Shown: piece after piece, positions 10,326 through 64,000 of the stretch
Layout of the letters: every line of letters starts with the position of its first letter
Position numbering within the stretch: position 1 is the first letter of the stretch
Assembly: GCA_963716875.1 (NCBI GenBank)
Contig: CAVQUR010000016.1
Location: 168,632-232,631, forward strand
Direction of reading: 5' to 3'
From: an uncultured Gammaproteobacteria bacterium
GTDB lineage: Bacteria; Pseudomonadota; Gammaproteobacteria; Chromatiales; Chromatiaceae
DNA length: 64,000 nt
The notes under the pieces: generated by a model
What the model was told of the DNA's origin: nothing
Database searches by the model: none
What the model saw: only the letters and a program-made list of their open reading frames with translations
Program-made: the position numbers and the translations under genes

Positions 10326-10331
10326 GCGAGA

Positions 10332-12226: not shown

Positions 12227-12383
12227 CACCCGCCACCAGAAGGGTCCGGCTAAGACCGGCGACTCCGCCAGTTCGCTAGATATGCATAGCCCTACACACT
12301 GATGCCGATCAATTGCAGCTATTGTTTTCGCCTCGTGTTAGGTCGAGAATATATCCAACTGCTTTGATCTTGAGGTATAGGAG

Positions 12384-44551: not shown

Positions 44552-45338
44552 ATGAATCGCTGCGTCAGCATATGTATAGCAAAACGCTTTGACTTCTCTG
44601 AGATCCAGCGGCAATTTTCGGATTTAGACCAGGGTACGTTATATCGCGATGCACTCCATCTGGAAGTCGCCGGTGGCCATGCCTTTGTCTTTAGTTACGG
44701 GGTGCTGGTATTGTGGGGTTTGAGTCATGATGCCGAACGCACCCTACGCAGGCGAGTCGCCGGTTTCTGTATCGCTCCTCATGGAGACCCCATCCAGGAC
44801 GAGTTTACCTTTCAACTCGATGCGGAACAGAATCGCATTCACAGCGACCATATCTCACTGACAGGTGATGACGCACTAACCCTGTTGGCGGTTTCCCACG
44901 GTATCGCCCAGTCCAGCAAACTTGAAGAGTTTGAAGGTTATGCGCTACAGACAATCGAGGAAACATCCGACATTCCTCGCAACATGGCAGCAACTGGAAG
45001 CACCAGATTGCCCCGTAAAAACATAGCCCGTATGCGTGGACGATTGTTCCTTGTGGAGAGTGATATCAATCTGAATTTTGCATTGCTGGACACGCCGGAA
45101 TTTTTCTGGGAATACCCGTCGCTTGAAGAATCTTTACAGCATGACGTCACGATATCTCGACTTAGCACCACGGATAGAGGTGCTGAATCGAAAACTCAAT
45201 ATCATTCATGATCTCTTTGACATGTTGGCGGACGAACAGAAGCATAAACATTCATCCATGCTCGAATGGATCATCATCTGGTTAATTGCCATTGAGATTC
45301 TGATATTTATCTTCCATGAATTTCTCAAACTATTCTAA
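44552..45338 (+). pseudogene. RMD1/DUF155-family protein, one frameshift near 45125-45135
   Basis: ORF 44552-45211 (..VFSYGVLVLWGL.., ..RLFLVESDINLNFALLDTPEFFWEYPSLEE) continues as LYSMTSRYLDLAPRIEVLNRKLNIIHDLFDML..C-terminal TM in ORF 45078-45338. Confidence 0.7.
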
Positions 45339-45510
45339 ATCCTTCAGAGTGTTATTGGTAAAATATAACTCATTCGGCTTGTCCAATGCCGTACAATAAA
45401 TCCGAATCGATTCTTTGATTGGGACTTATTGTTGACACGCTATGAAAATATCTCAGATATATTTATCTGATCTATTTTCTTGAATTAAATAGTCTGCTGT
45501 AAAAATCCCT

Positions 45511-45627
45511 TTAATCATTCACTATTCCGCTCACCGTTGAAGAATACAATTCGAAATGATCTCCGATCGCTTTCAAGGTATAGCCGCCACTTCTATAGAC
45601 CTGTTTGATCTTCCGCGATGTCTCGTG
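45511..45627 (-). pseudogene. 38-codon remnant of a DnaA-C-like HTH (as found at the C-terminus of REP-associated/IS200-like transposase relatives)
   Basis: The minus-strand frame reads LHETSRKIKQVYRSGGYTLKAIGDHFELYSSTVSGIVND*, bounded upstream by a stop. No catalytic part is present. Confidence 0.3.
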
Positions 45628-46023
45628 AAGTTATTTCTTGATACCAATATCCTGGCCAGCGCCCTGACCACACGCGGACTGCGCGCTGATCTCTTCGAAG
45701 TGGTTTTACAATCCCATGAATTGCTGACTTCTGATCATGTCCTGCGAGAACTCGAACGCATCCTCCCGGGGAAACTGGATCAATCAGAAGAGATCACTGA
45801 AGGATTTATAAAATTGCTATCGTCACATGCCCTTCTGGTGAACAGTCAACCTCCCTTCCCTTCTCTCCCAGGTCCCGATGATGAACCCATTGTCGCTTCC
45901 GCATTTGCAGGAAAATCAAATATCTTTGTCACGGGCGATAAGGCACTTCTGCAACTGCAAAGCGTCGAGTTTTTACCTATCGTTTCACCAAGGAGATTCT
46001 GGGAGATGATAGCCGGCCGATAA
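45625..46023 (+). CDS. PIN-domain toxin (orphan, no cognate antitoxin ORF seen)
   Basis: GTG 45625 gives VKLFLDTNILASALTTRG.. (first acidic PIN residue), ..VTGDKALL near the C-terminus. About 132 aa. The upstream part of the listed ORF overlaps the HTH remnant. Confidence 0.65.
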   Translation: MKLFLDTNILASALTTRGLRADLFEVVLQSHELLTSDHVLRELERILPGKLDQSEEITEGFIKLLSSHALLVNSQPPFPSLPGPDDEPIVASAFAGKSNIFVTGDKALLQLQSVEFLPIVSPRRFWEMIAGR

Positions 46024-46519
46024 TGATGTGCCGAGAATCAGTATAGCTGATAGCTTCCCTGGACAGCTTCAGGATAACCGTCTAGACATATTCTGATAGC
46101 ATCTTTCTCTAATCATTTCATGACAGACCACTCGCTCTTTTCATTGATAACCTCCCTGATTGTTAACTGTCGGATACTTGGTGACACTTGAAGCCACTGT
46201 GCGGCAGCATGAAGGAAGTTTTTTCAATGGGCCGACGAGGAGAAGAAACTCACAATGTGGATATTCAACGACCCAACGCGCATCGTCTTACTGGCGAGAC
46301 AATGAAGATACTTGCCAGCCGGGTCAGGAAATCAGATGTGCAACAATACGCCCCTCATCGCGCTGCAGACTGACGTCTCCTCTGAAAAAGCTCAAAAATA
46401 TCTGTTACTACGAATTATCGGGAAGGACAAGATGCTCAATGCTGATCTCATTGGCCGAATTTTAAGGAAATAATACACTATACTTTATAAGGATATTAAT
46501 GGAACGGAGGGGATTCTGG

Positions 46520-48742
46520 ATGAAAAATATAGGAAAACTACTGACCTTGCTACTGGTCTTCAGCAGTGGTTGGGTTGGAATATCAAAGGGTATCAGCGGG
46601 GATTCTGATAATGTGCTTGAGACGAAGCAGGGGAGAGACACTACATTCCAGATTGTGAGTCAAAAACATAGAGACGACCATCCTGGTAAGTGTCCTCATT
46701 GCAGTGATGACGGTGAATATGACTTCTGGATCGGCGAGGTTGGACGCAACGAGCCGCTCTTTACTGGGCCTCAACAGTACCCCTTTGTCTGTTGGACAAG
46801 CGAATCGGGGCTCAGCCAGCCCCTCATTGATAACCTTGAGGGTATAGGTAATCCCGTCTTCGTCGTCGAGGGTGACAACACCAGTGGGATACTTGGCTAC
46901 AGTGCAGACTGTAGCATGCAAACCCGGGTAGACTATTTCTACCTGGCTACAGATGGTCGCTTCTATCCGTATGACTCGTCGAATCCAACGCCAGATATCT
47001 ACCAGCTCCCGATTCAAGGTCAGCTCGTCGACTTCATCGTAAGGGTCGAGACCGGATCCCTCAACCGCTTTATCTACACGATCGCCATGCTTGCTCCTTT
47101 CCCGGAGGAGCTGGACGACCCCGAGGATCTGGACAACTGGGCTTGGAACGGTGACTTGGTGTACTATTTCCGCGGCGGCATCGGAATCGGCCATTGGCAA
47201 GGTACGGCCGGCTGGCATGGCGGCATCTCGGGAGGAGAACGAGCCATCTTTCCGCAGATTCTGGCAAGTGGTTATGCGATCGCAATGTCATCGGGCAATC
47301 AGAGTGGGGTACATTACAACCTGAATCTGACCGCCGAGACCGCCTATATGGTCAAGCAACACTTTGGCGCAATCTACGGAGAGCCTCGACACACCATCGG
47401 TATCGGGGGGTCCGGCGGCGCCGTCCAGATCTATTCCCTGGCTCAGAACATGCCTAGACTGCTCGATGCCGGTATTCCGCTAATTTCCTATCCAGATATG
47501 ATAACCCAGACGATCCACATCTCGGACTGCAACCTACTCGAGCAATACTTTCTAGAGGATGTGCTGCTCAAAGGAGCAGATAGCAAATGGGCGACATGGA
47601 GCAATCGCCAGTGGATCGAGGGGCTCAATGCCTCGGACACCGTGATCAACAGCCTCACCGGACTGCCCGGCAGTAGCGAGTGCATCGAGGGCTGGCACCT
47701 GAACACATCCACGGTGCTCAACCCTTACTTCACGGCCCCAGAATATTTCGCAGCCCTTGAGTTCTACCTCTATCCCCAGGACGTGATCGATGCCATCCGT
47801 TGGACCCACTGGAACGACCTAGAGAATATCTACGGTACCGACGATATGGGCTTTGCGCCCATTCCTATCGATAATGTAGGGGTGCAATACGGTCTGCAGG
47901 CCTTGCTCGATGGCAATATTGCGGCCAATGAGTTCCTGGAGATAAACAGTTGTGTCGGGAGTTGGAAGGAGCAAGTCGAATTCGTCCCCTTCTCGCTGAG
48001 CGAGGAGAATGTTTTCGATCATGAGAACATGAACCGCGATCCTTCTGCGTGCCGCGCTGGCATTCCTGCACCGCGACGTCAAGCCGACGCGTGGGCCATG
48101 GAGGCCGCCTATCTCTCCGGTCATGTCTTTACCGGTAAAAAGCTGGACATCCCGATCATCGACCTGCGGCCGTATCTCGAGGAGGAGCTCGACATGCACA
48201 ACAGCCGCCAGTCGTTTTCAGTACGTCAGCGGTTGCTCAATGGGATCGGCAACTCCGAAGATATGATCATCTGGTTTACCGGCTCTGAAGATGAGCTTCC
48301 AGAGCATACGCTTGAGGCGCTTGCCACTTTGCAGAACTATCTCAGCAGTGGGGTCAAACCTGCCAGTTTTGTCGATGCCTGCTGGGGCGCAAGCGGGACA
48401 CTCATCGGCGCTGGCGCAGATGTTTGGAATGGCATCTTAGATCAGAATCCTCCCGGTGTGTGTACGCAGGCATTTCCTATTTTCGCCTCGTCTCGAATGG
48501 TTGCCGGTGACAGCTATTCCGGTGATATGTTCAAGTGCAGCTTGATGTCAATCGATAAGGCGATACGCAAGGGAATCTACGGCGATGTCGTGTTCGATGC
48601 AGCACAACGCAACACACTCGATTTGATTTTTCCAAATGGTGTCTGTGACTACGGTAAACCAAACAAGGGGCTTCACACAGATAGACACCAAGCACGGGTC
48701 TCTAACAAAATAGGGGTGAAAATAACACACTTTGATCGCTAA
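46520..48742 (+). CDS. secreted large alpha/beta-hydrolase-like protein, unknown specificity
   Basis: MKNIGKLLTLLLVFSSGWVGISKG signal peptide. About 740 aa, intact. GIGGSGGAVQIY nucleophile-elbow-like motif. Several Cys pairs. Confidence 0.6.
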   Translation: MKNIGKLLTLLLVFSSGWVGISKGISGDSDNVLETKQGRDTTFQIVSQKHRDDHPGKCPHCSDDGEYDFWIGEVGRNEPLFTGPQQYPFVCWTSESGLSQPLIDNLEGIGNPVFVVEGDNTSGILGYSADCSMQTRVDYFYLATDGRFYPYDSSNPTPDIYQLPIQGQLVDFIVRVETGSLNRFIYTIAMLAPFPEELDDPEDLDNWAWNGDLVYYFRGGIGIGHWQGTAGWHGGISGGERAIFPQILASGYAIAMSSGNQSGVHYNLNLTAETAYMVKQHFGAIYGEPRHTIGIGGSGGAVQIYSLAQNMPRLLDAGIPLISYPDMITQTIHISDCNLLEQYFLEDVLLKGADSKWATWSNRQWIEGLNASDTVINSLTGLPGSSECIEGWHLNTSTVLNPYFTAPEYFAALEFYLYPQDVIDAIRWTHWNDLENIYGTDDMGFAPIPIDNVGVQYGLQALLDGNIAANEFLEINSCVGSWKEQVEFVPFSLSEENVFDHENMNRDPSACRAGIPAPRRQADAWAMEAAYLSGHVFTGKKLDIPIIDLRPYLEEELDMHNSRQSFSVRQRLLNGIGNSEDMIIWFTGSEDELPEHTLEALATLQNYLSSGVKPASFVDACWGASGTLIGAGADVWNGILDQNPPGVCTQAFPIFASSRMVAGDSYSGDMFKCSLMSIDKAIRKGIYGDVVFDAAQRNTLDLIFPNGVCDYGKPNKGLHTDRHQARVSNKIGVKITHFDR

Positions 48743-48752
48743 CAAACGAAAA

Positions 48753-48890
48753 TCATTGGAAATCTTTGATACGTTTCTTGCGCCCCGGGGCATACCTTTC
48801 GCGCCGATCGGATTCCACATAGTGGTCTGTCGTGGCCATGCTGGCATGCCCGGCATCATCCCGTACATGTTCCCGGGGGCGGATCTTCAC
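48753..48890 (-). pseudogene. tyrosine recombinase/integrase C-terminal remnant
   Basis: The minus frame reads ..VKIRPREHVRDDAGHASMATTDHYVESDRRERYAPGRKKRIKDFQ*. GHASxxTTxxYxE is the conserved integrase tail that contains the catalytic Tyr. The rest of the gene is absent. Confidence 0.4.
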
Positions 48891-48904
48891 AGGCAACGTG
48901 GATT

Positions 48905-49168
48905 GACGAGCCACTGAATTTCTTTCATAACCGGGACAAGGATAAAGTCGAGGTCGATCTCATTATTGAGAACGGCACAGGAGGCTGTTTTGCCGTGGAA
49001 GTGAAAGCAGCAGCCACTTTGAATGCCAAGGATTTTAACGGATTGAAACGCTTTCAAAGCATCGCTGGCGAGAGGTTTAAATTGGGTATTTTGCTCTATG
49101 ATGGCGATCACACCACAGCATTCGGCGATCAACTCTTCGCTGTGCCGGTTGGTGCATTATGGTCGTGA
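48905..49168 (+). pseudogene. DUF4143-type ATPase C-terminal remnant
   Basis: A frame with no start reads ..LNFFHNRDKDKVEVDLIIENGTGGCFAVEVKAAATLNAKDFNGLKRFQSIAGERFKLGILLYDGDHTTAFGDQLFAVPVGALWS*. This is the typical restriction-endonuclease-like C-terminal module of AAA/DUF4143 proteins. Confidence 0.5.
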
Positions 49169-49174
49169 GATCAA

Positions 49175-52012
49175 ATGACCAACAGGATAGACGTCGTGGA
49201 CCGCTCTTGTTCACCGGCAACTAAGATTGCACTGTTTCGATCACTGTTTCGCGGTCGCGATGACGTTTACCCCCGTCGTTTTGAAAGTCGCAAGACCGGA
49301 AAAAGTGGATACCAGCCCGCTTGTGGCAACGAGTGGATGCGTGGCGTGTGTCGAAAGCCCGAAATCAAATGTACCGCTTGCTTCAACCGGCGATTGCTTC
49401 CGGTTACCGATGAGGTCGTGAACTGGCATCTTACCGGCAAGGACGACATTGGGCGGGACTTTGTTATGGGTGTCTACCCCATGCTGCTCGACGAGACCTG
49501 TTTTTTTCTGGCCATGGATTTTGATAAGGCCGATTGGCAAGAAGACGTAAGCACCGTGCTTCAAACCTTTCGGAGATTTGGTATTCCGACAGCACTTGAG
49601 CGATCAAAATCAGGACGCGGTGGTCATGTCTGGGTATTCTTCGAGGAGGCGATTCCGGCCGCGTTGGCCAGAAGGATGGGCTCATTCATCCTCACGGAGA
49701 CGATGGAGCAACGTCCCGACGTCGGGCTGGACTCGTACGACCGGTTCTTTCCGAACCAGGATACGCTGCCCAAAGGGGGCTTTGGCAATCTTATCGCACT
49801 GCCGCTCCAGAAAGAACCGAGAGAACAGGGAAACAGCCTGTTCGTGGATGATAGGTTTCACGCTTATCCGGATCAATGGGCATTTCTCTCATCAGTTCGG
49901 CGACTCCTTCGGAACGAGATCGAGGGGTTGGTTCATACCGCAGAGCAAAAGGGGCGCGTTGTCGGGGTCGATTTTCCCGCTGACGAGGATCCGGATCATG
50001 CGCCTTGGACCGCGTCGCCGTCGCGACAAAGAAAGGATACTCCCATCCCCGGCCCACTTCCCAAAACCCTTGGGCTGACGATAGGGAACGAGATCTACAT
50101 TGCAAAGGCGGACCTGGTTCCTGGCTTGCAAAATCGTCTGCTGCGCTTAGCGGCTTTTCAGAATCCCGAGTTTTATAAAGCACAGGCCATGCGGCTTCCC
50201 ACGTATGGCACGTCGAGAGTTATTGCCTGTGCCGAGGATTTCCCACTACATATCGGTCTGCCTCGCGGGTGTCTGGAGAATATCCAAACCTTGCTGGCAG
50301 ACTTAAAGATTAAACCTGTGCTGAAAGACGAACGCTTTAGCGGGACGCCGTTGGAGACGAGGTTCCACGGTGTCTTACGGCCAGAGCAGGAAGCTGCAGT
50401 AGGTGCCATGGCAGAGTTCGAGACGGGTGTATTGTCGGCTACGACTGCGTTTGGCAAGACAGTGGTCGCGGCGAAGCTCATCGCCTTGCGTGGTGTGAAC
50501 ACGCTTGTGCTGGTTCATCGCCAGCAGTTGATGGAGCAGTGGGTGGAGCGTTTAGCCTCGCTCCTGAACATTCCAAGAAAGGAGATTGGTCGATTCGGAG
50601 GCGGTCGCAAGAAAGCCAATGGCCAGCTGGATGTGGCCATGATTCAGAGCATGGTTAGAAAAGGGGTCGTAAATGATCAGGTAGGAAAGTACGGTCACCT
50701 GATCGTTGATGAATGCCACCATCTTCCCGCTTCGAGCTTCGAACAGGTTGCGCGCAGATCGAAAGCCAAATACGTGCTTGGACTTTCAGCGACCGTTACT
50801 CGCAAGGATGGCCACCACCCCATCATCACCATGCAGTGTGGACCTATTCGCTACCGGGTCAATGCCAGGAAGCAAGCCAAGGTGCGTCCGTTCAGCCATT
50901 CCGTAGTGGTCCGTCCCACTGCATTCCGGGCGAGTGAAGTGGATGAGCAAGACCCACGTGCGCAGTTCAGCAAGTTGGTTGATTATATCGTAAGAGACGA
51001 GGTCAGGAACCGGCTCATCTGTGAGGATGCGATCAAGGCAGTCAAGGAGGGGCGCTCTCCGATTGTGCTGACTGAGCGAACGGATCACCTCAGCAGGCTG
51101 GAGGAAGCCCTGGCGTCCGAATGTGAGCATCTTATCGTGCTGAAGGGCGGGATGGGGAAGAATAAACTAAACGCGGCGCTCAAGGCGCTGAGTACAATCC
51201 CGGATGATGAAGAACGCCTATTGCTGGCAACGGGGAAGTACATAGGAGAAGGATTTGACGATGCCCGGTTGGACACATTGTTCCTTACCCTACCGGTATC
51301 CTGGCGAGGCACTATTGCTCAATATGCCGGGCGGCTCCACCGTCTGCACGACGGCAAGGATGAGGTACGCATCTACGATTACGCCGATCTCAATGAGCCC
51401 ATGCTGACCCGGATGTTCGACCGCCGCTGCAAAGGGTATGAGGCGATCGGTTACACGATCCAGCTACCCGCCAGCGCGGTGCCGGGTTGGCCTGTAGATG
51501 TACCCTTGCCGATCGATCCCACATGGAAGAGGGACTATGCCGCTTCAATCCAGCGCCTGATTCGGGATGGCGTAGACACCCCTCTGGGCGATCTATTCGT
51601 TTGTGCGGCTCATTCCATCGAGGCGGAAGCTGAAGGTGTGGATCGTGCACGGTCTGCAACCGAGAAATTCCTCTACCAAAGGCTCGAAACCATCCCAGAG
51701 ACAGTTGGCAAGTTTCGTCTGAATGCGGTGCTTCCGATCCCCTTTGATGGATCTGGCTCGATGGAGGTCGATCTACTCTTTGCTGAAGGCAAGGTAGTCA
51801 TTGAAGTGGATGGACCACACCATTTGACCGGTCCCGATGCCTATCGACGCGACCGCCGCAAGGACTTGATGCTACAAGAACGCGGATATTGCGTGGTTCG
51901 ATTCCTAGCTGAAGACGTGGGCAAATATCTCGACCATGTACTCGATACAGTCATTCGCGTTCTGACCAAGTACAATCGGCAAAATGAGAGTGATTTATAT
52001 GCTGATAAATAG
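49175..52012 (+). CDS. fusion protein: archaeo-eukaryotic primase (AEP/prim-pol)-like domain + SF2 DEAD/DEAH-type helicase + DUF559/Vsr-like endonuclease domain
   Basis: - Length: 945 aa, uninterrupted.
- N-terminal Cys cluster: C50-x8-C59-x6-C66-x2-C69.
- AEP motifs: FLAMDFD (DxD, aa 111-117), SGRGGHVWVFF (sxH, aa 146-156), DSYDRFFP (aa 186-193).
- Helicase motifs: TAFGKTVV (I), VDECHH (II), SAT (III), QYAGRLHR (VI).
- C-terminus: MEVDLLFAEGKVVIEVDGPHH..RRDRRKDLMLQERGYCVVRF (DUF559-like PD-(D/E)xK). Confidence 0.8.
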   Translation: MTNRIDVVDRSCSPATKIALFRSLFRGRDDVYPRRFESRKTGKSGYQPACGNEWMRGVCRKPEIKCTACFNRRLLPVTDEVVNWHLTGKDDIGRDFVMGVYPMLLDETCFFLAMDFDKADWQEDVSTVLQTFRRFGIPTALERSKSGRGGHVWVFFEEAIPAALARRMGSFILTETMEQRPDVGLDSYDRFFPNQDTLPKGGFGNLIALPLQKEPREQGNSLFVDDRFHAYPDQWAFLSSVRRLLRNEIEGLVHTAEQKGRVVGVDFPADEDPDHAPWTASPSRQRKDTPIPGPLPKTLGLTIGNEIYIAKADLVPGLQNRLLRLAAFQNPEFYKAQAMRLPTYGTSRVIACAEDFPLHIGLPRGCLENIQTLLADLKIKPVLKDERFSGTPLETRFHGVLRPEQEAAVGAMAEFETGVLSATTAFGKTVVAAKLIALRGVNTLVLVHRQQLMEQWVERLASLLNIPRKEIGRFGGGRKKANGQLDVAMIQSMVRKGVVNDQVGKYGHLIVDECHHLPASSFEQVARRSKAKYVLGLSATVTRKDGHHPIITMQCGPIRYRVNARKQAKVRPFSHSVVVRPTAFRASEVDEQDPRAQFSKLVDYIVRDEVRNRLICEDAIKAVKEGRSPIVLTERTDHLSRLEEALASECEHLIVLKGGMGKNKLNAALKALSTIPDDEERLLLATGKYIGEGFDDARLDTLFLTLPVSWRGTIAQYAGRLHRLHDGKDEVRIYDYADLNEPMLTRMFDRRCKGYEAIGYTIQLPASAVPGWPVDVPLPIDPTWKRDYAASIQRLIRDGVDTPLGDLFVCAAHSIEAEAEGVDRARSATEKFLYQRLETIPETVGKFRLNAVLPIPFDGSGSMEVDLLFAEGKVVIEVDGPHHLTGPDAYRRDRRKDLMLQERGYCVVRFLAEDVGKYLDHVLDTVIRVLTKYNRQNESDLYADK

Positions 52013-52638
52013 TACGAATTGAAATATATACACGAGGAAGCGGCTTAATTCCACTCAATGGGACTCCATGAAATCAAAAAGATCGGCCGGACAGAGTTCT
52101 CTCGTCAAAGCTCAATTCTTATCGTTGTCATCGCTTATTTCACTGGAGATCCGTTCAAGATCTCCAAGAAGCCCAGACGTCATGATGATTTTTCACTTTT
52201 TTTCTAAACCTTATTACCTTGGGGTCAAAGTTCTCTATGATGTACTGGTGTGCTTCATGCAACAACGCGATGGCTAGCTCTACTTCACGTTTAAATTGGT
52301 CGTCGGTATCGGAAAGCGGTGTCAGGAGCGAGGCACATATCCCATATAAACCCCTCGCCCTACCGTTCGCCGTTGTTTTCCCCTTCGATCCATTTACTGG
52401 GGATCAGTTTGTCGATACAGTTATTACCAACATCATTGACCTCTTCCATTAGATGAGTCATCAGCGAGGTTACTGTACCGTAATAGAGCTGACCCTCAAT
52501 CAGTAGACGGATCCACCAGGGATGGGATACTCCATAGTAGCCTGAGCCTTTATTCTCTGGAAAATCCCGGAATCCGGCGAGTTCAGAAGTGGACCCCGTA
52601 TTTCGGACAGTCGCTTAAGTGTATTCTGCTCTCTCTGA

Positions 52639-53536
52639 TTACGCCGCTTCCGGCAGCATGATTTCACCTAAGTATGCATGGTCTGGGGTTTTTCCCAGGC
52701 TCTGATGTTTGCGTTCCGCGTTGTAGAATCGAAAATAGCTCCCCAGTCTGGAACGTGCTTCACTCACTGAATCGTAGGCCCGTAGGTAGACTTCTTCGTA
52801 CTTCACACTGCGCCAGAGCCGTTCCACCATCACATGGTCCACCCAACGACCCTTACCGTCCATGCTGATCTGCACCTCTGCCGCCTTCAGAACCCCGGTG
52901 AAGGCCTCGCTGGTAAACTGGGCCCCCTGGTCTGTGTTGAAGATCTCCGGCGCGCCATAACGGTGGATTGCTTCCTCCACGGCATCCACATAGAAATCAC
53001 TTTCCAGGGTATTCGACAGGCGCCAGGATAAGACCTTACGGCTGTACCAGTCCATGATGGCTACCAGGTAGACAAAGCCTTTGGCCATCGGAATATACGT
53101 GATGTCCGTTGCCCAGACCCGGTTGGGTCGGTTGATGTCCAAGCCCTTGAGCAAGTAGGGATAGATCTTGTGCCTCTTCCCGGGTCGGCTGGTGTTTGCC
53201 TTTGGGTACAGGGCAGTGATCCCCATCTGCTGCATCAGACGCTGAACGCGCTTGCGGTTGATGTCATGACCTTCCTCCCACAGCCAATCCCGAATCCGAC
53301 CGACTACCGTAGAATTGCCGTTGCAAATGCATCTCGTCGATACGCCGCATCAGCTTCAGGTCGTCATTTGATGCTGGTTTAGGCTGGTAGTAAACGGTTG
53401 AACGATTCAGTGACAGCAACTGAAACTGCCGGGTCACAGGCAAAGTATGCATTCGGTCGATCATCCTTTTCCTTTCGGACTGTGAATCCTTTCCAGCCCT
53501 TGTTCTAAAGCTTCCGCTCCTGCTCACGCCCCTCAC
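52639..53536 (-). pseudogene. IS3-family transposase OrfB (DDE integrase core), frameshift near 53300-53325 and in-frame TAG between orfA and orfB
   Basis: ORF 53264-53536 (..KRMIDRMHTLPVTRQFQLLSLNRSTVYYQP..IDEMHLQ) and ORF 52639-53235 (..RVWATDITYIPM..YLVAIMDWYSRKVLSW..FNTDQGAQFTS..ERLWRSVKYEEVY). The RIRDWLWEEGHDINRKRVQRL segment lies in a third frame. Confidence 0.8.
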
Positions 53537-53812
53537 CTACATCCGTGTAGGCGAAAAATCCCGTTCCATTGTCAGTTGACCAATCTTGGCGTGTAGTTCC
53601 TTAATCTTGTGCTCGCTATCCTCAGCCAGCTTAGCACTGCCACCAAAGACTTGATCGGCACTCTCCATCAGCTGGCGCCGCCAATCGGTAATTTGATTAG
53701 GGTGAACATCGAACTGTTCTGCCAAATCTGCCAAAGTTCGATCTCCTTTCAAAGCCGCCACAGCTACCTTAGCCTTGAAGTTTGAGGAATGATTTCTACG
53801 TTTTCTTCTCAT
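53537..53812 (-). CDS. IS3-family transposase OrfA (HTH)
   Basis: MRRKRRNHSSNFKAKVAVAALKGDRTLADLAEQFDVHPNQITDWRRQL..leucine-zipper-like..LTMERDF. ATG 53812 is preceded by AGGAG. Confidence 0.8.
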   Translation of the reverse strand: MRRKRRNHSSNFKAKVAVAALKGDRTLADLAEQFDVHPNQITDWRRQLMESADQVFGGSAKLAEDSEHKIKELHAKIGQLTMERDFSPTRM

Positions 53813-53892
53813 CTTCTGCTCCTGTCTCTCGGACCATAGTTTTGCAGAAGACACTTAAACTTTCCTCATCCCTGTCCAACTACCGGGGTCCA

Positions 53893-54074
53893 CCACTTGC
53901 GGGCGCTGAAAAACTCAACAGGGCAGCCCATTGTTCCTCCACGATGGCAACATACCGGATCGTGTTTCCTATCTTGGGTAGTGAGCCCAGATAGTGATGC
54001 GCCTGCATCAGCGCTTGAAAATCACGCTCTTGGGAGGAGGGAACAGGTACTACACTAAGGGATGAATGGCGCAA
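53893..54074 (-). pseudogene. DUF4338-like protein fragment, cut by the IS3 element
   Basis: MRHSSLSVVPVPSSQERDFQALMQAHHYLGSLPKIGNTIRYVAIVEEQWAALLSFSAPAS. The HHYLG...Y.A.....A.L.FS.AP block matches my recollection of DUF4338 proteins. The reading frame runs straight into the IS right end at 53892. Confidence 0.45.
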
Positions 54075-54641
54075 GCTGTCTCTCGTTTAGTAATTTGAAC
54101 ACCTGTTTTTACCTCAGGAGACAGCTTTTGTCCAGAATTCGTGGGTATTTTTATGTTTTCATGGGAGTTGGGGGGGTTAGCGGTGTTCCGCCGTGACAGC
54201 CTCCCTGGCATCATCGATATCCTTTTCTGAATTACGTTCGATTCCCCGCAGGCTGGCTAGAAGAGCGCCGGATACGATATCTTGCATCACCGTCCATCAT
54301 GGCACGAAAGATCTCCTGTTGCTCATGCGACCAGGAGTGGTAAGCAGGATCTGCGGCAATCAGGGCTCTACGTGCCGCGGCTTCAATATCGGATTTATCG
54401 AAAGGGTGTGACATGAGGCAGACTCAAGGCGGCAACAGAAATAGACTCCATTTTTCAGCCGGCTGTTTATGTGCGTTCTACTCTAGCACCCCGGTTATTA
54501 AAAGATTCTTGGCTAAAATAGACCCGCTTCTGCCACTTGGTACAGACTGCGTGTTGCTTTGCTAAACGTGCATTGGCAGGATTTAGTCAAACAAATGCTA
54601 TTGCATGACGATCACGTCACTAGTAACTCATATATTATTAG

Positions 54642-54715
54642 TGGAGGCTGAGCCCGGAATCGAACCGAGGTACACGGCTTTGCAGGCCGCTGCATAACCA
54701 CTCTGCCACCCAGCC
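54642..54715 (-). tRNA. tRNA-Cys (anticodon GCA)
   Basis: The reverse complement GGCTGGGTGGCAGAGTGGTTATGCAGCGGCCTGCAAAGCCGTGTACCTCGGTTCGATTCCGGGCTCAGCCTCCA folds as a cloverleaf: 7-bp acceptor, CTGCAAA anticodon loop, GGTTCGATTCC T-arm, encoded CCA. Confidence 0.93.
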
Positions 54716-54958: not shown

Positions 54959-55411
54959 TCATTCTTGTTGTCGTGTGTAAAGAAACGGGAGAGTGATGGT
55001 TATAACGCCATTTTCAACTGTCCTTTTCATATTCTCCGGATCAGCGTCACGCGGAATTGAAAATCTTCTTCTAAAGTTACGCGAACTACTTGAATAGCTA
55101 TAAAAACCCTGCTCTGACCTTTCTTCCTGCTGAAGTGATTGTTTGTTTTCGATTATAATAGTGTGGCCGACAATTTTAACTTGAATTGACTCTGGATCTA
55201 TTTCTCCACTGATGTATATACGGAGTTTATAACCTTCTTGATCCATTCCTTTATCCACCCATATTCTACCAAAGTTGCGGTATTGCATGGCTGATGGTGG
55301 TATAGGTGGCTGTAAAATTCGATTATTGTAAATATCAGGAACCTGGGCTTGTAACTCATTGAATAAACAACTCATTACAGTAGCCACTACTAATCTTTTG
55401 ATATTTTTCAT
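54959..55411 (-). CDS. Hsp20/alpha-crystallin-domain protein with predicted N-terminal signal peptide
   Basis: 150 aa. MKNIKRLVVATVMSCLFNELQA-Q is signal-like. ACD signature: GYKLRIYISGEIDPESIQVKIVGHTIIIENK..FRRRFSIPRDADPENMKRTVENGVITITLP. Confidence 0.7.
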   Translation of the reverse strand: MKNIKRLVVATVMSCLFNELQAQVPDIYNNRILQPPIPPSAMQYRNFGRIWVDKGMDQEGYKLRIYISGEIDPESIQVKIVGHTIIIENKQSLQQEERSEQGFYSYSSSSRNFRRRFSIPRDADPENMKRTVENGVITITLPFLYTRQQE

Positions 55412-55650
55412 GCATACTCCTTTATCATTTCATTATGATTATATCTGAAGCTTTATCATCAGATTCTTACATACACAATACATTCTCTGGATATATATCC
55501 ATATCTATTCCGTGAATAATATAAATGATACATAGATTTTTATACTTAGCCTATTCTAAAATAAGGTTTGAGATTGCTACGGCCATGCCTGCCCACAGTA
55601 AAAGAATGAATTTCAATCAAGGATATAGAAAGAATGGATAAAGCATATTG

Positions 55651-56229
55651 TTATCTTCTTGGTTGTTTCGATTGCCCTTTTCTATTGATGGGTAGTTTTA
55701 ATGCTGGCGTTTTATCCTTGTCTGCTTGCGTATTAGCTAACTCAATTTGGATAGTTTGCGTTTCGTCTCCCCTTTCAAAGTCGGCAGATTGTTTTTGAAC
55801 ATTCTTTAAGCGCCATCCGTTATGTATCATTCCAACCTCGAGTCGTACAATACTATTATTCGTGATGTCCCTCACTACTGCTACCCTTGATTCTGGACTG
55901 ATAACTATCCCCTCTAATGTCAACTTCAGTTGTGATAGGATTGTAGTATTATTCTTTTCTTGCTGCTCTTCTTCAAATGGCATCCTCCCCTGTACAAACA
56001 GAGGACGATTAAGTATTTCAACAAATTGAGAAATAGCAATATTTGATTGTGAAATATTATTTAGGATTTCAGAGTCCTGTTTTAAATCTTGTTTATTACC
56101 ATTATCAATATCCAAAGTCGTATTAATATCGTCCAAACCCTGCCATTCGATGTATATAACAAACATCAATAGCGTACAGATCAACAGGAGTATGAGCGTC
56201 AAACCATTTGCCATTCGATAAATATTCAT
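55651..56229 (-). CDS. T2SS GspC/XpsN-like inner-membrane component (HR-domain only, no PDZ)
   Basis: 192 aa. N-terminal TM (LTLILLLICTLLMFVIYI). The C-terminal LKLTLEGIVISPESRVAVVRDITNNSIVRLEVGMIHNGWRLKNVQKQSADFERGDETQTIQIEL resembles the GspC homology region. It follows gspM, as XpsN does in Xanthomonas-type clusters. Confidence 0.5.
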   Translation of the reverse strand: MNIYRMANGLTLILLLICTLLMFVIYIEWQGLDDINTTLDIDNGNKQDLKQDSEILNNISQSNIAISQFVEILNRPLFVQGRMPFEEEQQEKNNTTILSQLKLTLEGIVISPESRVAVVRDITNNSIVRLEVGMIHNGWRLKNVQKQSADFERGDETQTIQIELANTQADKDKTPALKLPINRKGQSKQPRR

Positions 56230-56819
56230 TGATCGCTCCCTCGTATATATCCTGAAACGTCAAATTGCACATCAAGGATTGTCGGTGCCTGCTCAATCTC
56301 ACTATTTCTTACCCGTCTCCTACTTATCACACGACTACGTATATTCATGTTATCGATGAATAAAAATGGGTTTCCAGTTTCTATTTTATATAGTATTGTA
56401 ACCAGTGATTTTAGGTTACTTCGCAACCTAACTTTTAAAGTAATTTGTGGTATAAGATCATTTTTCCTATTTGTAATTATCTGTGTACTGAGTATTTCAC
56501 CATTGGTTGGAACAATAATCTCCTTAATAATTTGCTGTATTTCAGCTGCTGCCAGTGATTCACTGGTACTCTTAAGATAACGTTTATCCGATAAATGATA
56601 TTTCTTTAATTTTACATACTGCGGTTCTAGACTTTGTCCAGCTACGGTGGTTCTTTTTAAGATAGATAACCGGTGTCTCATATCATCAATGATATCTGAA
56701 TAATGGCTGTTAACCTTCCATATTGGAACGACGATCGAAATTATAAAAGCAGTCATAATTAAGAGAAATAGTATTACTGCCAGATACTTTTGTTTTTTTG
56801 GATCCAGTTGACGAATCAC
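56226..56819 (-). CDS. gspM: T2SS protein GspM
   Basis: 197 aa. Single N-terminal TM, then a ferredoxin-like periplasmic part ending ..ILYKIETGNPFLFIDNMNI. Positioned after gspL with overlapping stop/start. Confidence 0.6.
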   Translation of the reverse strand: MIRQLDPKKQKYLAVILFLLIMTAFIISIVVPIWKVNSHYSDIIDDMRHRLSILKRTTVAGQSLEPQYVKLKKYHLSDKRYLKSTSESLAAAEIQQIIKEIIVPTNGEILSTQIITNRKNDLIPQITLKVRLRSNLKSLVTILYKIETGNPFLFIDNMNIRSRVISRRRVRNSEIEQAPTILDVQFDVSGYIRGSDQ

Positions 56820-57907
56820 TAGATTTCTTCCTGTTTTAATTGTGCCGACAAATGAAATCTTTCAGTATTATTTTGTCGATTTTGAGTCACAGGAGACCTG
56901 AACTGTGCATTACTGAAAATCTTAGATGCCTCCATGATAGGCAATAATGAGGCTGAAGAAACAGATTCTCCATATACATGTACTTCATTATCATTCACAT
57001 CAACCTGATTAACCCAAGTATCGTCTGGAATAATCTGTGTAAGTTCATCAATCACGTGCAACATAAGAGTTGAAGCATGTTTCTTATCCACAAGAAATAA
57101 TGCTTCTTCTTCCGCCTTGTCTACTTGTTTTCTTAGCTTCGTTATACTTTCCGCACTCTTAGTGTATTTATTCAACTCCGGCTCAAGACTCTCGATATAT
57201 TTGACTTTACTCCAGACCGGCAGGAACATCGAGACCAAGAGTAATAGACACAGGACTCCTGTCAGAGTGTAATTTATTACTTTTAGCGCATTTATCCTTT
57301 TTGCCCTTTTTTCTATTGGAAGAAGATTTATTTGTGAATAGTCATCTGTTTTATCGCCATGCACTGTGACAATATGTGGCCTGAATCCTATCTGATCAAG
57401 ACTTTGTAACAGCCCATCAACCCTATCCTTTGGCACTATGACAAGTTGCAGGTCAACCTTATTTTTTTGTTTATTTCTTGAAATCAAATTGTAATCGTAA
57501 TAGACCTGATTAGCTGTGAATGGTGTAAGTCTATCCATTTCGAATGACAATACTTCCCTCATGTTTTCCTCTGCCGGCATCGGAAAAGAAACATTCTTTT
57601 CTAAAACATGACGCTTAGGAACAGCTAATATCTTTTGCGTTACATTCGTCTCCCTGACTATACTCGATATCTGATTTGAAGTTAACTCATTGATGGGCAT
57701 TCTCTTTACATGGCTTTTTTTACTTCCAATAATTCTATGTATATCTATAAGATCGCCATCTATTTCAAGAATAAGTTTATTTGTATTAAATAGTAATTGT
57801 CGTATTGTTAATGGCAATATAGAGATCAACTCTTCTGTCCACCAAGACCAGAAATCCGCAATAGGGCGACTAACTAGATAACTCAATGTTGATTTCGATT
57901 CTTTCAT
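56819..57907 (-). CDS. gspL: T2SS protein GspL
   Basis: 362 aa. Cytoplasmic actin-like N-domain, central TM (VINYTLTGVLCLLLLVSMFLPVW), periplasmic C-domain. Lies between gspK and gspM. Confidence 0.6.
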   Translation of the reverse strand: MKESKSTLSYLVSRPIADFWSWWTEELISILPLTIRQLLFNTNKLILEIDGDLIDIHRIIGSKKSHVKRMPINELTSNQISSIVRETNVTQKILAVPKRHVLEKNVSFPMPAEENMREVLSFEMDRLTPFTANQVYYDYNLISRNKQKNKVDLQLVIVPKDRVDGLLQSLDQIGFRPHIVTVHGDKTDDYSQINLLPIEKRAKRINALKVINYTLTGVLCLLLLVSMFLPVWSKVKYIESLEPELNKYTKSAESITKLRKQVDKAEEEALFLVDKKHASTLMLHVIDELTQIIPDDTWVNQVDVNDNEVHVYGESVSSASLLPIMEASKIFSNAQFRSPVTQNRQNNTERFHLSAQLKQEEI

Positions 57908-57919
57908 ATTATTTTAATA

Positions 57920-58856
57920 TTATTGACTCGACTCTTGCCATGCTAATATAGTATAGGCATCATCTAGATTTTGAGCTGTATCCACATCAACCTCCAAACC
58001 AGCCATTGCGCCACTCGCAACTGTAGCCCATACCGAAATATGAAATACCTTACTTGCATTACCCCGAATAAGATCTGTAGGTAATCTATCTTCCAGTTGC
58101 GCCTCCATTTGATCTTCTAGTTGGGTGTCTATAGGTAATAGGTTGTCTAACTCAGAATCGATAAGTGTTGTATCTGAACCACCAAAAAGAATAGCAAGTT
58201 CTTTAGGAGCCAAGCTATGATTGATGGCGCTTTGACCCGAGAAAACAGTAATGTAAGGAGCTATAGTATTAAATATCGTTGTGTTCATACCCATAACATA
58301 ACGAAGTTCTCCAATACTGAAAAATGGACGATTGGATGGACCATAGTCAAAACCTTTACTTTTATAGTCAGCATCTTCTGCCCCGTTGAGTCTTTTAAGA
58401 TTATCAGAATCTTTCCAGTCCAAAATAGCATCAACTATGCCCGATACTTTCATGCTGTTCAAGTTGCACTCCAGAAAACAAAGTCTCCAAAACGTCGGAC
58501 GTTGCATGATTAATATCAACCAAACCCGCTGTATTACGAATCATGACCTGCACTTCTCCATCCGGCATTGTTAACAGATATGCTTGCCCATTGAATGCCC
58601 AACGGTCTTGTTCATTATTATTAAACAGTTCATATATTGCTCGATTTAATCCTGATTCTGCTAGTGCTCTGGCTTTTGCGCTTTCTACATGGTGCCTCGC
58701 TATTAGCATGTCCAATCTAACATTACGAGAATGACTTACACCAATCACACTTAAAAGTACGATAATCCATAATACTAAAACTAAAGCCACCCCTTTACAA
58801 TTTTGAACTTCCGATGTCTGCTTACTATTATTTTTCCAGATTCGCATCTTGTACAT
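57920..58856 (-). pseudogene. gspK: T2SS minor pseudopilin GspK, one frameshift near 58455-58475
   Basis: ORF 58431-58856 (KGVALVLVLWIIVLLSVIG..LVDINHATSDVLETLFSGV) continues in ORF 57920-58519 (..VSGIVDAILDWKDSDN..FFSIGELRYVMGM..). Confidence 0.7.
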
Positions 58857-58881
58857 GATAATAGTTTATATCTTATTGCAT

Positions 58882-59535
58882 CTAATTCTGCAAACTTATC
58901 TTAGATCTGAGTTCGACAGCAATATCCAGCCATGATTCCATTTTTTCTTCACTGGTTATCTCAATTTTTATTATCGAGGGATAAGTCTTTGTTGTGTCAT
59001 CCCACACATCATTCCACTCGAGAGGGCTATTTTTATCCTGTGACCCATAGTATAAATATTTAACTTTATCCAATCGTGATAATATCTTACGATTCGGACT
59101 ATTCCTCGTCACTTTGAAACCGTTCTTAGACGGATCATGCGGCTCAAAATATAGTAAGAGCGATAAGCTACCATCATCTTGCCTTTCATTCGTAACATAA
59201 TATTCATAGTACTCTACTACTTCTCTTCCCTGCGGTGCTGGCGCAATAAACTTCAAACCATCCTCTTCACCTTGGAAAGCAATAATTCTTGTTGCGCCAT
59301 CGTTCCAGTAAATAGGATATATCTGTTCGATTTTCTTTCGAATAAATTGTTCTGCAAATCTTGTTGTAGAATTCTTTGTAATTATATTTGCCGTTCCCTG
59401 CCATGTTCTGCTGCCAAGTCTCAATGCTGAATATGAGATGGTTATGATTAATGACAAGATTACAATTGAAACAAGAAGTTCAAGTAAGGTAAAACCTAAA
59501 TCTTTACCAGTCACTCTAAAACGCGTTCTAGCCAC
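58882..59535 (-). CDS. gspJ: T2SS minor pseudopilin GspJ
   Basis: 217 aa. Prepilin leader ..GKDLG/FTLLELLVSIVILSLI. Position after gspI. Confidence 0.7.
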   Translation of the reverse strand: MARTRFRVTGKDLGFTLLELLVSIVILSLIITISYSALRLGSRTWQGTANIITKNSTTRFAEQFIRKKIEQIYPIYWNDGATRIIAFQGEEDGLKFIAPAPQGREVVEYYEYYVTNERQDDGSLSLLLYFEPHDPSKNGFKVTRNSPNRKILSRLDKVKYLYYGSQDKNSPLEWNDVWDDTTKTYPSIIKIEITSEEKMESWLDIAVELRSKISLQN

Positions 59536-59680
59536 AATAACATCTAGCTTTTTCTGAAGAACTTGTATTTAACAAAAGAAATTACGTGCATATGTATGTA
59601 TTCTGCATAAGCATAACGATCCTGATAAGACCTGTCCAACTTGAAGGCGTGGATCGTTTTCTTGTAATTAATAGCGATTA

Positions 59681-60114
59681 TCAACCAGAATGGACGGTTA
59701 TTATATTCTTCTTTAATTTGATACTAGATAGTTCTATCCGTCTTGTAAGACCTCGTTCTAACCAACTTACCTCAACCATAATTCTGAACGCTGATACAGG
59801 ATATATTTCCTTTTCTGTCCTCTTCGTAAAAACTGTATGGTTCAACGATAGTCTGCCAGTTGTATCGAACACCGGAGACGCCGGCATCAGTGCCTGGCAA
59901 CAATTCATTTTCAACGCCTATTGATTGCAAGTTGTGACTCAGCAATCTGAACTGCATCAACATATTGTTGAGAAATAACTATGTTTTTTGTACCACTCGA
60001 AAATATCCTAAGCAGGACAGTGACCGACATTGCCAGGATTACAAAAGCCACAAGGACTTCCACTAACGATATGCCCGTGACTTTCCTTATCCCAATCCCC
60101 TTAATCACTAGCAT
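59681..60114 (-). pseudogene. gspI: T2SS minor pseudopilin GspI, about 2 frameshifts (about 59935, about 59800)
   Basis: MLVIKGIGIRKVTG/ISLVEVLVAFVILAMS..VQIAESQL (ORF 59911-60114), then LSHNLQSIGVENELLPG..YNWQTIVEPY.. (ORF 59772-59963), then ..YPVSAFRIMVEVSWLERG..IELSSIKL (ORF 59681-59914). The 3' end is uncertain. Confidence 0.6.
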
Positions 60115-60574
60115 GCCCTTCTTTTAGACTAATACTACCAGTAATCCAATCTACAATGAGTGAATATACCCGATCATTATTACTTAATGTGATTATCCCC
60201 CCTGAAGAACTACCGTCTGCAAAAAATGCAATAACAGGATTTTCATCATCTACAACTCGCAGTCCAATATGGCTTGCAGAAATCTTTATACTATTTGGTA
60301 GTATTTGCTCTTTTCCTTGATATTTATCCTCACTCGAATAGGCGCCTGTATTCTGATTGATTACTACCTGCGTCTTCTTACCTTTCAGAATCGCGATGTC
60401 ACGGACGTAGTTCAAATCCTGTAATAAATCATTAGTAACTGCTTTAAGTGTAAGTGACGGCAATGCATTGCTGAATAACGGCGGTACAAGAGTCATCAAA
60501 AGACTCATTATCATCAGCACGATCAACATCTCGAGCAGGGTAAATCCCCTGTAGTTGATCGGGTATACTTTCAT
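60101..60574 (-). CDS. gspH: T2SS minor pseudopilin GspH
   Basis: 157 aa. Leader ..NYRG/FTLLEMLIVLMIMSLL. Position between gspG and gspI. Confidence 0.7.
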   Translation of the reverse strand: MKVYPINYRGFTLLEMLIVLMIMSLLMTLVPPLFSNALPSLTLKAVTNDLLQDLNYVRDIAILKGKKTQVVINQNTGAYSSEDKYQGKEQILPNSIKISASHIGLRVVDDENPVIAFFADGSSSGGIITLSNNDRVYSLIVDWITGSISLKEGHASD

Positions 60575-60577
60575 ATA

Positions 60578-61006: not shown

Positions 61007-61019
61007 TTTTCTATATTTG

Positions 61020-63978: not shown

Positions 63979-64000
63979 AAAACCGGTAGTAAGTTGATTC

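Follow-up and report, generated by a model that had tools for sequence, protein, structure and literature searches.

Among the relatives of the CRISPR-associated primase-polymerases (CAPPs) that lie outside CRISPR loci, the most prevalent architecture is a primase-polymerase (Prim-Pol) joined to a helicase, and such fusions are typically found in mobile genetic elements and transposable elements (PMC8211822). Here we describe a further fusion, encoded in a 64,000-nucleotide (nt) stretch of DNA from an uncultured Gammaproteobacteria bacterium of the Chromatiaceae (GenBank assembly GCA_963716875.1, contig CAVQUR010000016.1, positions 168,632 to 232,631 of the forward strand). This whole stretch is called the window, and coordinates are given in its numbering. 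The gene (49175..52012, plus strand) is an uninterrupted open reading frame (ORF) that starts with ATG and encodes 945 amino acids (aa), in which an archaeo-eukaryotic primase (AEP) domain, an XPB-like superfamily 2 (SF2) helicase and a DUF559 endonuclease domain follow one another. With moderate confidence, we read it as a stand-alone, horizontally mobile, single-polypeptide enzyme of nucleic-acid conflict, whose most likely role is defence against phages or plasmids.

Among solved structures, the AEP domain is nearest in fold to CRISPR-associated Prim-Pols (7nqd, 7nqf and 7p9j), and sequence matches agree; among known systems, class CAPP_A and especially its 'CAPP-Helicase' type come closest (Zabrady et al. 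2021, PMC8211822). CAPP_A enzymes are found as fusions with TPR, reverse transcriptase (RT) and helicase domains (PMC8211822), and the role proposed for CAPP is in spacer acquisition, not that of an effector. The 945-aa protein differs from CAPP in an insert of ~50 residues with four cysteines (Cys4) and in its C-terminal DUF559 nuclease. CAPP is CRISPR-associated, but the window lacks a CRISPR array, none of its genes that were examined is a cas gene, and a single Cas3 occurs among 207 neighbours of relatives; a CRISPR association was rejected on these grounds. The NCBIfam model PrimPol_Msp scored 77 bits against a cutoff of 200.

By name, the protein belongs to the TOTE conflict systems. An earlier interpretation made from the letters alone (the sequence-only reading) had noted that similar N-terminal domains were catalogued computationally in surveys of conflict systems, and this was correct: PF22548, the Pfam family of this domain, is entitled 'TOTE conflict system, AEP domain', and NCBI names some homologues 'TOTE conflict system archaeo-eukaryotic primase domain-containing protein'. 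The TOTE-named proteins share with ours both the family profile and the succession of AEP, ResIII/DEAD and DUF559. The acronym stands for TPR, OB, TBP and Effector, according to a passage of PMC12458937 that cites Aravind et al. 2022. TOTE systems are multi-component, whereas our gene and 63 relatives stand without TPR, OB or TBP partners, so that the domain family is shared but the system architecture is not. Among the genes checked around the window gene, a neighbour of TPR-S1/CSD type (S1/CSD being OB-folds) and a TBP neighbour are absent; the effector is present, as the DUF559 domain fused in cis.

For the motor, the best sequence and fold matches are archaeal XPB-Bax1 complexes (6p4o, 6p4w, 6p66) and the XPB of TFIIH. 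In XPB-Bax1, too, an XPB-type motor works with an endonuclease, and our protein has R-K-D at the position of the XPB RED motif. However, its nuclease is fused in cis and is of Vsr/DUF559 type, a primase-polymerase is added, and the gene is accessory and mobile rather than core. Defence by single-protein helicase-nucleases is reportedly exemplified by Hhe (a helicase with a Vsr-like nuclease) and Nhi, which are said to go back to Gao et al. 2020 and Bari et al. 2022. Both reportedly join, in one polypeptide, an SF1 helicase to a nuclease of Vsr/PD-(D/E)xK type, stand alone in variable islands and carry no primase-polymerase domain. The PADLOC models of Hhe and Nhi gave no match to the 945-aa protein.

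A related PrimPol fused to another nucleic-acid enzyme constitutes the single-protein anti-phage system DRT7/UG10, with a weak PADLOC match at aa 122-227 of our protein. The defence role of DRT7 and the part of its PrimPol domain in it have been demonstrated (bioRxiv 10.64898/2026.04.18.719102; PMC12439943). Its partner enzyme, however, is a reverse transcriptase and not an SF2 helicase with a nuclease, and nothing here evidently corresponds to its protein-primed poly(T)/poly(A) synthesis. In replicative fusions (ORF904 of pRN1, phage AEP-DnaB fusions, NrS-1) the AEP is structurally similar and likewise N-terminal to the helicase, but these helicases are hexameric (SF3, SF4 or MCM) and lack a nuclease, whereas ours is an XPB-type SF2 motor. 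No replicon genes or origin context were adjacent among the genes examined beside the window gene and its relatives. Among the validated-system models of PADLOC-DB v2, the only ones to match were the CRISPR 'PrimPol' accessory and the generic helicase parts of PbeA, type IV restriction endonuclease and Hachiman HamB.

Domain architecture, conservation and selection

The sequence-only reading had proposed an intact ORF built of four parts: a zinc ribbon, an AEP domain, a complete SF2 helicase core and a C-terminal DUF559/Vsr-like module. We confirmed the ORF and found all quoted motifs at the expected residues. Its ATG is corroborated by the closest relatives, L001 and L006 (L numbers denote homologous loci), which share the same start (MTNR/MANR).

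The Pfam family PF22548 (AEP-TOTE) matched aa 17-250 (49223..49924, plus strand) with E 2.8e-96 and 322 bits against a cutoff of 27. Positions 2-228 of the 230 in the profile were covered, so that the gathering threshold is passed over the whole profile, and no profile result spoke against an AEP-like N terminus. The PADLOC model of the CRISPR-accessory PrimPol extended over aa 15-328 (E 2.5e-90), the solved CRISPR-associated Prim-Pol of Marinitoga was matched in sequence at aa 145-252 (E 9e-9), and PHROGs profiles for a DNA helicase and a primase were matched as well. The three motifs of AEP-superfamily Prim-Pols are present on an AEP fold: motif I (DxD) as FLAMDFD with D115 and D117, motif II (sxH) as SGRGGHVWVFF with H151, and motif III (hD) as DSYDRFFP with D189.

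An AlphaFold2 (AF2) model of aa 1-400, built from a more diverse alignment, reached a predicted local distance difference test score (pLDDT) of 92.2 and a predicted template-modelling score (pTM) of 0.88. In Foldseek it matched CAPP Prim-Pols (7nqd_A and others) with template-modelling (TM) scores of 0.76-0.81, root-mean-square deviations of 3.0-3.6 Å and E values of ~1e-13 to 1e-14 (0.81 and 3.0 Å for 7nqd_A), followed by mycobacterial Prim-PolC and the polymerase domains of LigD. In a comparison with viral models, the similarity was to AEP primases of phages that are fused to DnaB-like helicases.

The four cysteines (C50, C59, C66 and C69; 49322..49381, plus strand) are real, but they do not form a separate N-terminal module; they lie in an insert inside the AEP domain envelope. 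This insert is confidently modelled (pLDDT 93-95), the cluster is at least 90% conserved even among relatives at 38-68% identity, and zinc binding is probable. Between the AEP domain and the helicase, conservation and a pLDDT above 90 delimit an alpha/beta module (aa ~290-395; 50042..50359, plus strand) with the motifs NPEF and LPRGC. Comparison of aa 286-400 with PDB sequences returned noise alone (DARPin matches); a domain resembling the damage-recognition domain of XPB was considered as one candidate for this module.

Helicase lobe 1 (aa 401-566; 50375..50872, plus strand) carries motif Q, motif I (GKT, 427-429), motif II (DECHH, 512-516) and motif III (SAT, 538-540). It is matched by ResIII/DEAD in Pfam (aa 401-543, E 4e-23), and its solved sequence relatives are archaeal XPB/Rad25 (XPBII) helicases (E 3e-18 to 5e-19). 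In lobe 2 (aa ~575-745; 50897..51409, plus strand) we found motif V (GEGFD, 691-695) and motif VI (QYAGRLHR, 716-723); the Helicase_C profile matches weakly at aa 620-724, and the lobe has a pLDDT of 80-90 in the full-length model. The ResIII match and the XPB matches in sequence and fold bear out a complete SF2 core. Directly after motif III, the family-invariant R543-K544-D545 aligns with the RED motif of XPB (RED/RDD) and differs from it in the central residue. Because these residues occupy the RED-motif position, the motor is XPB-like. It is not an XPB orthologue: the NCBIfam equivalog model of XPB scored far under its cutoff.

At the C terminus, aa 817-930 (51623..51964, plus strand) match PF04480 (DUF559) with E 2.7e-9 and 37.3 bits, above the cutoff of 20.6. 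The region holds EVDLLF (864-869, with E864 and D866), IEVDG (876-880, with E877 and D879) and RRDRRKD (891-897), and it matches PDB entry 3hrl_A, an endonuclease-like DUF559 protein from structural genomics, with E 0.004. Given the profile and the conserved acidic residues of PD-(D/E)xK type, we predict a Vsr-like nuclease. The full-length AF2 model is moderate (pLDDT 61.5, with helicase lobe 1 and aa 26-106 poor), probably because its alignment was shallow in diversity; its coarse Foldseek matches retrieve XPB (TFIIH, XPB-Bax1), UvsW and CAPP Prim-Pol.

Conservation was assessed in 66 full-length homologues from reference genomes and metagenomes and in two curated alignments. Residues D115, D117, H151 and D189, the four cysteines, GKT, DECHH, SAT, GEGFD and QYxGRLHR are invariant or nearly so, as are the acidic and basic residues of the DUF559 domain; in one curated alignment, E864, D866, E877, D879 and RRDRRKD are invariant. 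All three modules are predicted to be catalytically competent, as a primase-polymerase, an XPB-type SF2 translocase or bubble-opener on double-stranded DNA and a Vsr/DUF559 endonuclease. Among characterised proteins, the nearest to the primase-polymerase module is a DNA-dependent DNA primase/polymerase.

The ratio of nonsynonymous to synonymous substitution rates (dN/dS) is 0.18 and 0.13 against the two closest intact relatives (0.13-0.19 overall, 0.09 to 0.21 per domain). Additionally, the 2.8-kb gene holds no disruption, compared with at least 7 in an adjacent pseudogene of ~1.07 kb; at that rate, ~18 would be expected. Because dN/dS is low and the gene is intact beside a heavily disrupted neighbour, it is judged to be under purifying selection, in agreement with the sequence-only reading, which had argued from intactness that selection maintains it.

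Family, autonomy and the conflict reading

The suggestion that such a three-part fusion is a novelty was overstated. In a search of 5.8 billion proteins, at least 8000 (a lower bound) matched the 945-aa query. The best 120 of these at least 8000 were inspected: they are 67-89% identical and ~930-990 aa long when complete, all consist of AEP, helicase and DUF559, and they come from Planctomycetota, Verrucomicrobiota, Lentisphaerota and Proteobacteria. A look-up of the exact protein sequence of the window gene in the assembly collection found no record. A search of 1.84 billion representatives with the AEP domain alone gave 8030 clusters at 50% identity, of which 1464 had E <= 1e-30. Prim-Pol-helicase fusions had already been reported (PMC8211822), and the present one is an ordinary member of a very large, computationally catalogued family.

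Across 42 diverse representatives, AEP was detected in 42 and ResIII in 40; a PLD-like C terminus was found in 8 and DUF559 in 5, and in the rest none was detected. Judging from these profiles, the AEP and helicase core is constant and the C-terminal nuclease exchangeable (DUF559, PLD or none), a pattern typical of effectors. Two distant members with a C-terminal PLD domain carry an extra N-terminal domain, FMN_red/flavodoxin-like in L092 (7436-10669) and a GNAT acetyltransferase in L094 (4915-8235). These extra domains may serve in sensing or regulation, or the gene calls may have been drawn too long.

For gene neighbourhoods, ORFs were called and clustered in 79 loci from GTDB species representatives and in contigs of close homologues. 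Of 84 loci, no more than 9 share any one neighbour family, and the recurrent families are generic: an SNF2/SWIM helicase and DUF1501/DUF1553 paralogues of the Planctomycetes-Verrucomicrobia-Chlamydiae (PVC) group. A Pfam tally of the 103 upstream and 104 downstream ORFs of 63 loci found no family in more than 3 loci. Distant members with GNAT or FMN_red-like N termini are likewise solitary, amid housekeeping genes. A conserved operon partner was considered and rejected; a 1023-aa gene coupled upstream in L002 and L003 encodes a lineage-specific secreted protein. Because no neighbour recurs and no TPR, OB or TBP partner was found in the 63 loci, the helicase-fused clade appears to be autonomous, with no conserved partner gene needed. 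The sequence-only reading had named a consistent housekeeping context, such as a DNA-repair operon, as an observation that would speak against it; the contexts proved variable, with no conserved repair operons. In L004 (848-9198) the homologue lies between a pair of DUF3427 helicase and HNH_2 genes and a toxin-antitoxin pair (HTH_17 and PIN_3), which is a setting typical of defence islands.

The conflict enzyme that we favour would act as follows. The XPB-like motor would load onto invader DNA and open it, by analogy with the archaeal XPB-Bax1 helicase-nuclease machine. The primase-polymerase would engage the exposed single strand or intermediates of replication or entry, and its priming and extension would either mark the substrate for the enzyme or jam the replication of the invader. 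The C-terminal nuclease, as the effector, would nick or cleave. A more specific version, in which the enzyme provides immunity on its own and de novo priming on the single-stranded DNA (ssDNA) of the invader is itself the sensing or killing step, we put forward tentatively and regard as rather doubtful; to our knowledge, such a step has been shown for no defence system.

Several observations point towards conflict: a neighbouring candidate defence gene (PDC-S01, described below), the setting in L004, the location in an island, the cargo position of relatives in recombinase-in-trio (RIT) elements and next to TniQ, the absence from phages and the exchangeable nuclease. In general, the family seems, from the loci compared, to be carried as cargo by islands, plasmids, RIT elements and a Tn7-like transposon. 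There is also precedent for Prim-Pols of this kind in immunity. CAPP, which our AEP domain resembles, acts in CRISPR adaptation (PMC8211822), and the PrimPol domain of DRT7 works in abortive infection (bioRxiv 10.64898/2026.04.18.719102).

Other points weigh against a defence role. The mechanistic steps are inferred, and a primase role in a helicase-nuclease effector has no demonstrated case; in the literature we found no experimental test of any family member. An identity of 60-70% across phyla is unusually high for a defence gene. Many relatives are located amid plain housekeeping genes, and the 207 flanking ORFs mix housekeeping functions (GidA, YidC, EF-Tu, PurL) with DarT/Macro, AbiE, HipA, PIN, integrases and one Cas3, a plain count of defence-type neighbours taken without a background control. 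As for expression of the window copy, its upstream operon partner is truncated, and a scan upstream of the gene in the window found no recognisable promoter.

Mobile carriage and alternative explanations

A search of 50,697 phage records found no full-length homologue, and a phage origin was rejected for this reason. Plasmids carry a sister clade: 39 records contain an 813-aa AEP-helicase without DUF559, at 53-59% identity. In the alphaproteobacterial plasmids of Yoonia, Rhizobium and Pukyongiella this gene runs convergently towards three tyrosine recombinase genes in tandem, and the four genes together are bounded by perfect inverted repeats, 171, 95 and 179 nt long (L085 6585-12878, L086 6636-12914 and L089 5582-11870). 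These units are RIT elements with a fourth gene. Canonical RIT elements are not known to carry genes beyond the three recombinases. The passages of the RIT literature consulted do not mention a fourth gene of this kind. The Yoonia unit (L085) appears to interrupt a strawberry-notch gene. In plasmids of Bradyrhizobium and Agrobacterium, a recombinase trio lies just 3' of the AEP-helicase gene.

On plasmid pTB1 of Sphingobium yanoikuyae (L087 3778-9256), the start of the AEP-helicase gene overlaps the stop codon of TniQ in a (hypothetical)-TniB-TniQ operon, which reflects either a Tn7/Tn5053-like cargo position or functional coupling. Plasmid copies also lie near backbone genes for ParB, a zincin-like metallopeptidase (presumably ArdC-like), DUF932 and DUF736, and one strain has two copies on two plasmids (H33/H34, H35/H36). 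In the DUF559 clade, to which the window gene belongs, no recombinase or transposase was found around the gene in 66 loci, and a search for inverted repeats around the gene in the window and at the 66 loci of its family found none. Because the inverted-repeat test was negative at the 66 loci, this clade appears not to be RIT-borne.

This carriage raises the alternative of a factor for the replication or establishment of mobile elements, whose primase-polymerase and helicase would copy the DNA intermediates of the element while its nuclease nicks. Its substrates could be RIT elements excised as circles or hairpins, intermediates of transposons, or ssDNA that enters by conjugation. We judge this explanation unlikely. 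The perfect inverted repeats on three plasmids, the overlap with TniQ, the plasmid backbone genes and the paired copies in one strain all fit it, as do the resemblance of the AEP domain to phage primases fused to DnaB-like helicases and the usual residence of non-CRISPR CAPP relatives in mobile elements. It would also suit the RIT elements themselves, whose mobilisation mechanism is unknown and for which free protected DNA intermediates are reported in a passage of PMC5737581. However, the motor is an XPB-type SF2 helicase and not a hexameric replicative one of the SF3, SF4 or MCM kind, and the C-terminal nuclease, in the manner of an effector, belongs to unrelated folds in different members and is missing from others. 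The DUF559 clade, with neither recombinase, transposase nor inverted repeats at 66 loci, has no element to replicate, and the full-length protein occurs in no phage. The helicase gene itself looks like RIT cargo when set against the three recombinases of a canonical element. Between conflict and element replication, which the sequence-only reading had left as a choice, the evidence leans to conflict.

A further alternative is an accessory enzyme of DNA repair or damage tolerance, in which the XPB-like motor would open a bubble, the Vsr-like domain would nick and the Prim-Pol would fill gaps or reprime. It would be analogous to archaeal XPB-Bax1 joined with mycobacterial Prim-PolC. In line with this idea, the helicase finds its best solved matches in XPB proteins, XPB-Bax1 complexes among them, and the AEP model matches Prim-PolC and LigD polymerase domains after CAPP. 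A PrimPol of the PPRT/DRT7 type contributes to oxidative damage tolerance as well as to defence (PMC12439943), and the place of several members amid housekeeping genes, together with the high conservation, fits a housekeeping-like biochemical constraint. We nevertheless regard a repair function as improbable. The distribution is patchy, with carriage on islands, plasmids and transposons, and among the 207 neighbours uvr, ku, lig and other repair genes did not recur. The exchangeable nuclease and the adjacent defence-candidate ATPase are traits of conflict systems.

Very improbable, too, is a self-sufficient selfish gene, a 'self-synthesising' mobile unit of one ORF that would copy or home itself to new sites by means of its own nuclease, motor and primase-polymerase. 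It would explain why proteins are 60-70% identical across phyla while homology stops at the ORF ends, and why no recombinase, transposase or inverted repeats surround the gene. It would also explain fragments of a second gene copy beside intact copies, which we observed in L001 (8168-8445 and 12939-12995), L011 (13551-13712) and L062 (1361-1477). In L001 the 3' fragment lies upstream and the 5' fragment directly downstream of the intact gene. Such fragments suggest decayed tandem copies or repeated insertion at one place.

We give very little credence to the view that the protein is the effector subunit of a multi-gene TOTE system whose partners lie elsewhere or were lost, leaving the gene inactive or unregulated when alone. 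The Pfam and NCBI names, the definition of TOTE and the TPR fusion among the CAPP_A types speak for it, but TPR, S1/CSD and TBP domains do not recur among the 207 flanking ORFs of 63 relatives or beside distant members, and the genes checked beside the window copy carry none. Moreover, that a solitary gene is kept under purifying selection in thousands of genomes points to autonomy.

An eroded, putative tRNA-Cys island

The immediate surroundings of the gene are best understood from L079, a gammaproteobacterial metagenome-assembled genome with a 95% identical locus. There, an intact 408-aa ATPase of AAA_14 and DUF4143 (L079 8768-9994) ends 7 nt before the AEP gene, and over its whole length it matches PDC-S01, a candidate defence gene in PADLOC (E 4.5e-162). 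In the window, only the last 93 codons of this ATPase remain (48887..49168, plus strand; residues 316-408 at 91% identity in tblastn), and DNA homology with L079 starts in blastn at 48889, within the ATPase gene. The DUF4143 tail noted in the sequence-only reading is therefore genuine. An ATPase of PDC-S01 type also lies directly upstream on the same strand in the diverged loci L009, L048 and L064. Its recurrence in at least 4 loci is far above chance for a rare family; it could mark a two-gene module or a recurrent neighbour in defence islands.

Our gene appears to be what remains of a small candidate defence island of two genes, PDC-S01 ATPase and AEP fusion, the upstream partner of which has been deleted. 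We infer that the native promoter was probably lost together with it. In L079, the 95%-identical AEP gene (10001-12848) is split into three ORFs (327, 101 and 287 aa), through either real decay or indel errors of long-read assembly. Orphaned only recently, the window copy could itself be heading for decay, unexpressed and still intact for lack of time. This view fits the deleted partner with its likely promoter, the lack of a promoter-like site upstream, the split in L079 and the pseudogenes immediately around it, but it is highly improbable given the absence of disruptions where ~18 were expected, the complete set of catalytic residues and the low dN/dS, while read-through from the co-oriented DUF6351 gene is possible and the L079 breaks may be sequencing errors.

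Downstream of the gene lies the pseudogene used above as a measure of decay, a homologue of an intact 356-aa gene of L001 that belongs to no known family. Its 3' part (52121..52584, minus strand; tblastn and blastn) and its 5' part (54196..54414, minus strand; residues 1-51 at 92% identity in tblastn) carry at least 2 in-frame stops, at least 3 frame changes and a deletion, and they are separated by a 1.6-kb insertion. This insertion (52580..54195, minus strand), delimited by blastn breakpoints relative to L079 and L001, contains an IS3 element with HTH_Tnp_1 and rve domains in Pfam. On the minus strand, orfA (53537-53854, HTH_Tnp_1) is intact, but orfB is broken into two frames, 53264-53536 and 52639-53235. 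This goes beyond the programmed frameshift of IS3, so that the element has probably lost its activity.

The module abuts the 3' end of a tRNA-Cys(GCA) gene (54642..54715, minus strand; ARAGORN and Rfam), which is a putative integration site of the island. Partial copies of the 3' half of this tRNA flank or interrupt the homologous islands in L079 (8381-8440) and L001 (16938-16985; blastn); a second repeat of the tRNA-Cys (an att site) was searched for in the window, and none was found. The GC content is intermediate, and the integrase remnant proposed upstream of the gene has no profile support.

Thus, the earlier description of an island in decay holds in part. The downstream ORF is a true pseudogene, the IS3 element is real, and all immediate neighbours are stubs or disrupted. 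The integrase tail found no support, and the DUF4338/DruA-like fragment inside the insertion (53880-54074, minus strand) was not confirmed, its match being weak (E 0.037 only). Nor is every island gene broken. Three intact genes of intermediate GC content (44552-48742), which may or may not belong to the same island, stand between the high-GC core and the eroded module: a DUF155/RMND1-like gene (44552-45211), a gene for a PIN-domain protein (45556-46023) and one for a secreted, tannase-like DUF6351 protein (46499-48742), co-oriented with the AEP gene.

On a larger scale, GC content changes sharply at the tRNA-Cys/tRNA-Gly locus, from ~60% on the left (1-44000) to ~38% (36-43%) on the right (55000-64000). 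The left 44 kb carry housekeeping genes, among them those for pyruvate dehydrogenase E1/E2/E3 and a DUF2126/transglutaminase/ATP-grasp cluster, and ORFs resembling type II secretion genes lie in the low-GC right flank. The break would stem either from a chimeric assembly at this point or from a large block of foreign DNA that makes up one of the flanks.

The copy in this window adds only another member, in an eroded, putative tRNA-Cys island, to a family that is among the more abundant predicted conflict enzymes. The interest rests not on this copy but on the unexplained use of a primase by the family and on the side observations. What the analysis adds is the apparent autonomy of the clade despite its 'TOTE' name, the exchangeable, putative nuclease effector and a sister clade built into RIT elements. 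As a single gene with three mutable active sites, the fusion is a clean experimental target. Once known, the contribution of the primase-polymerase to a helicase-nuclease would extend the theme of nucleic-acid synthesis in immunity, as in CAPP and the DRT systems.

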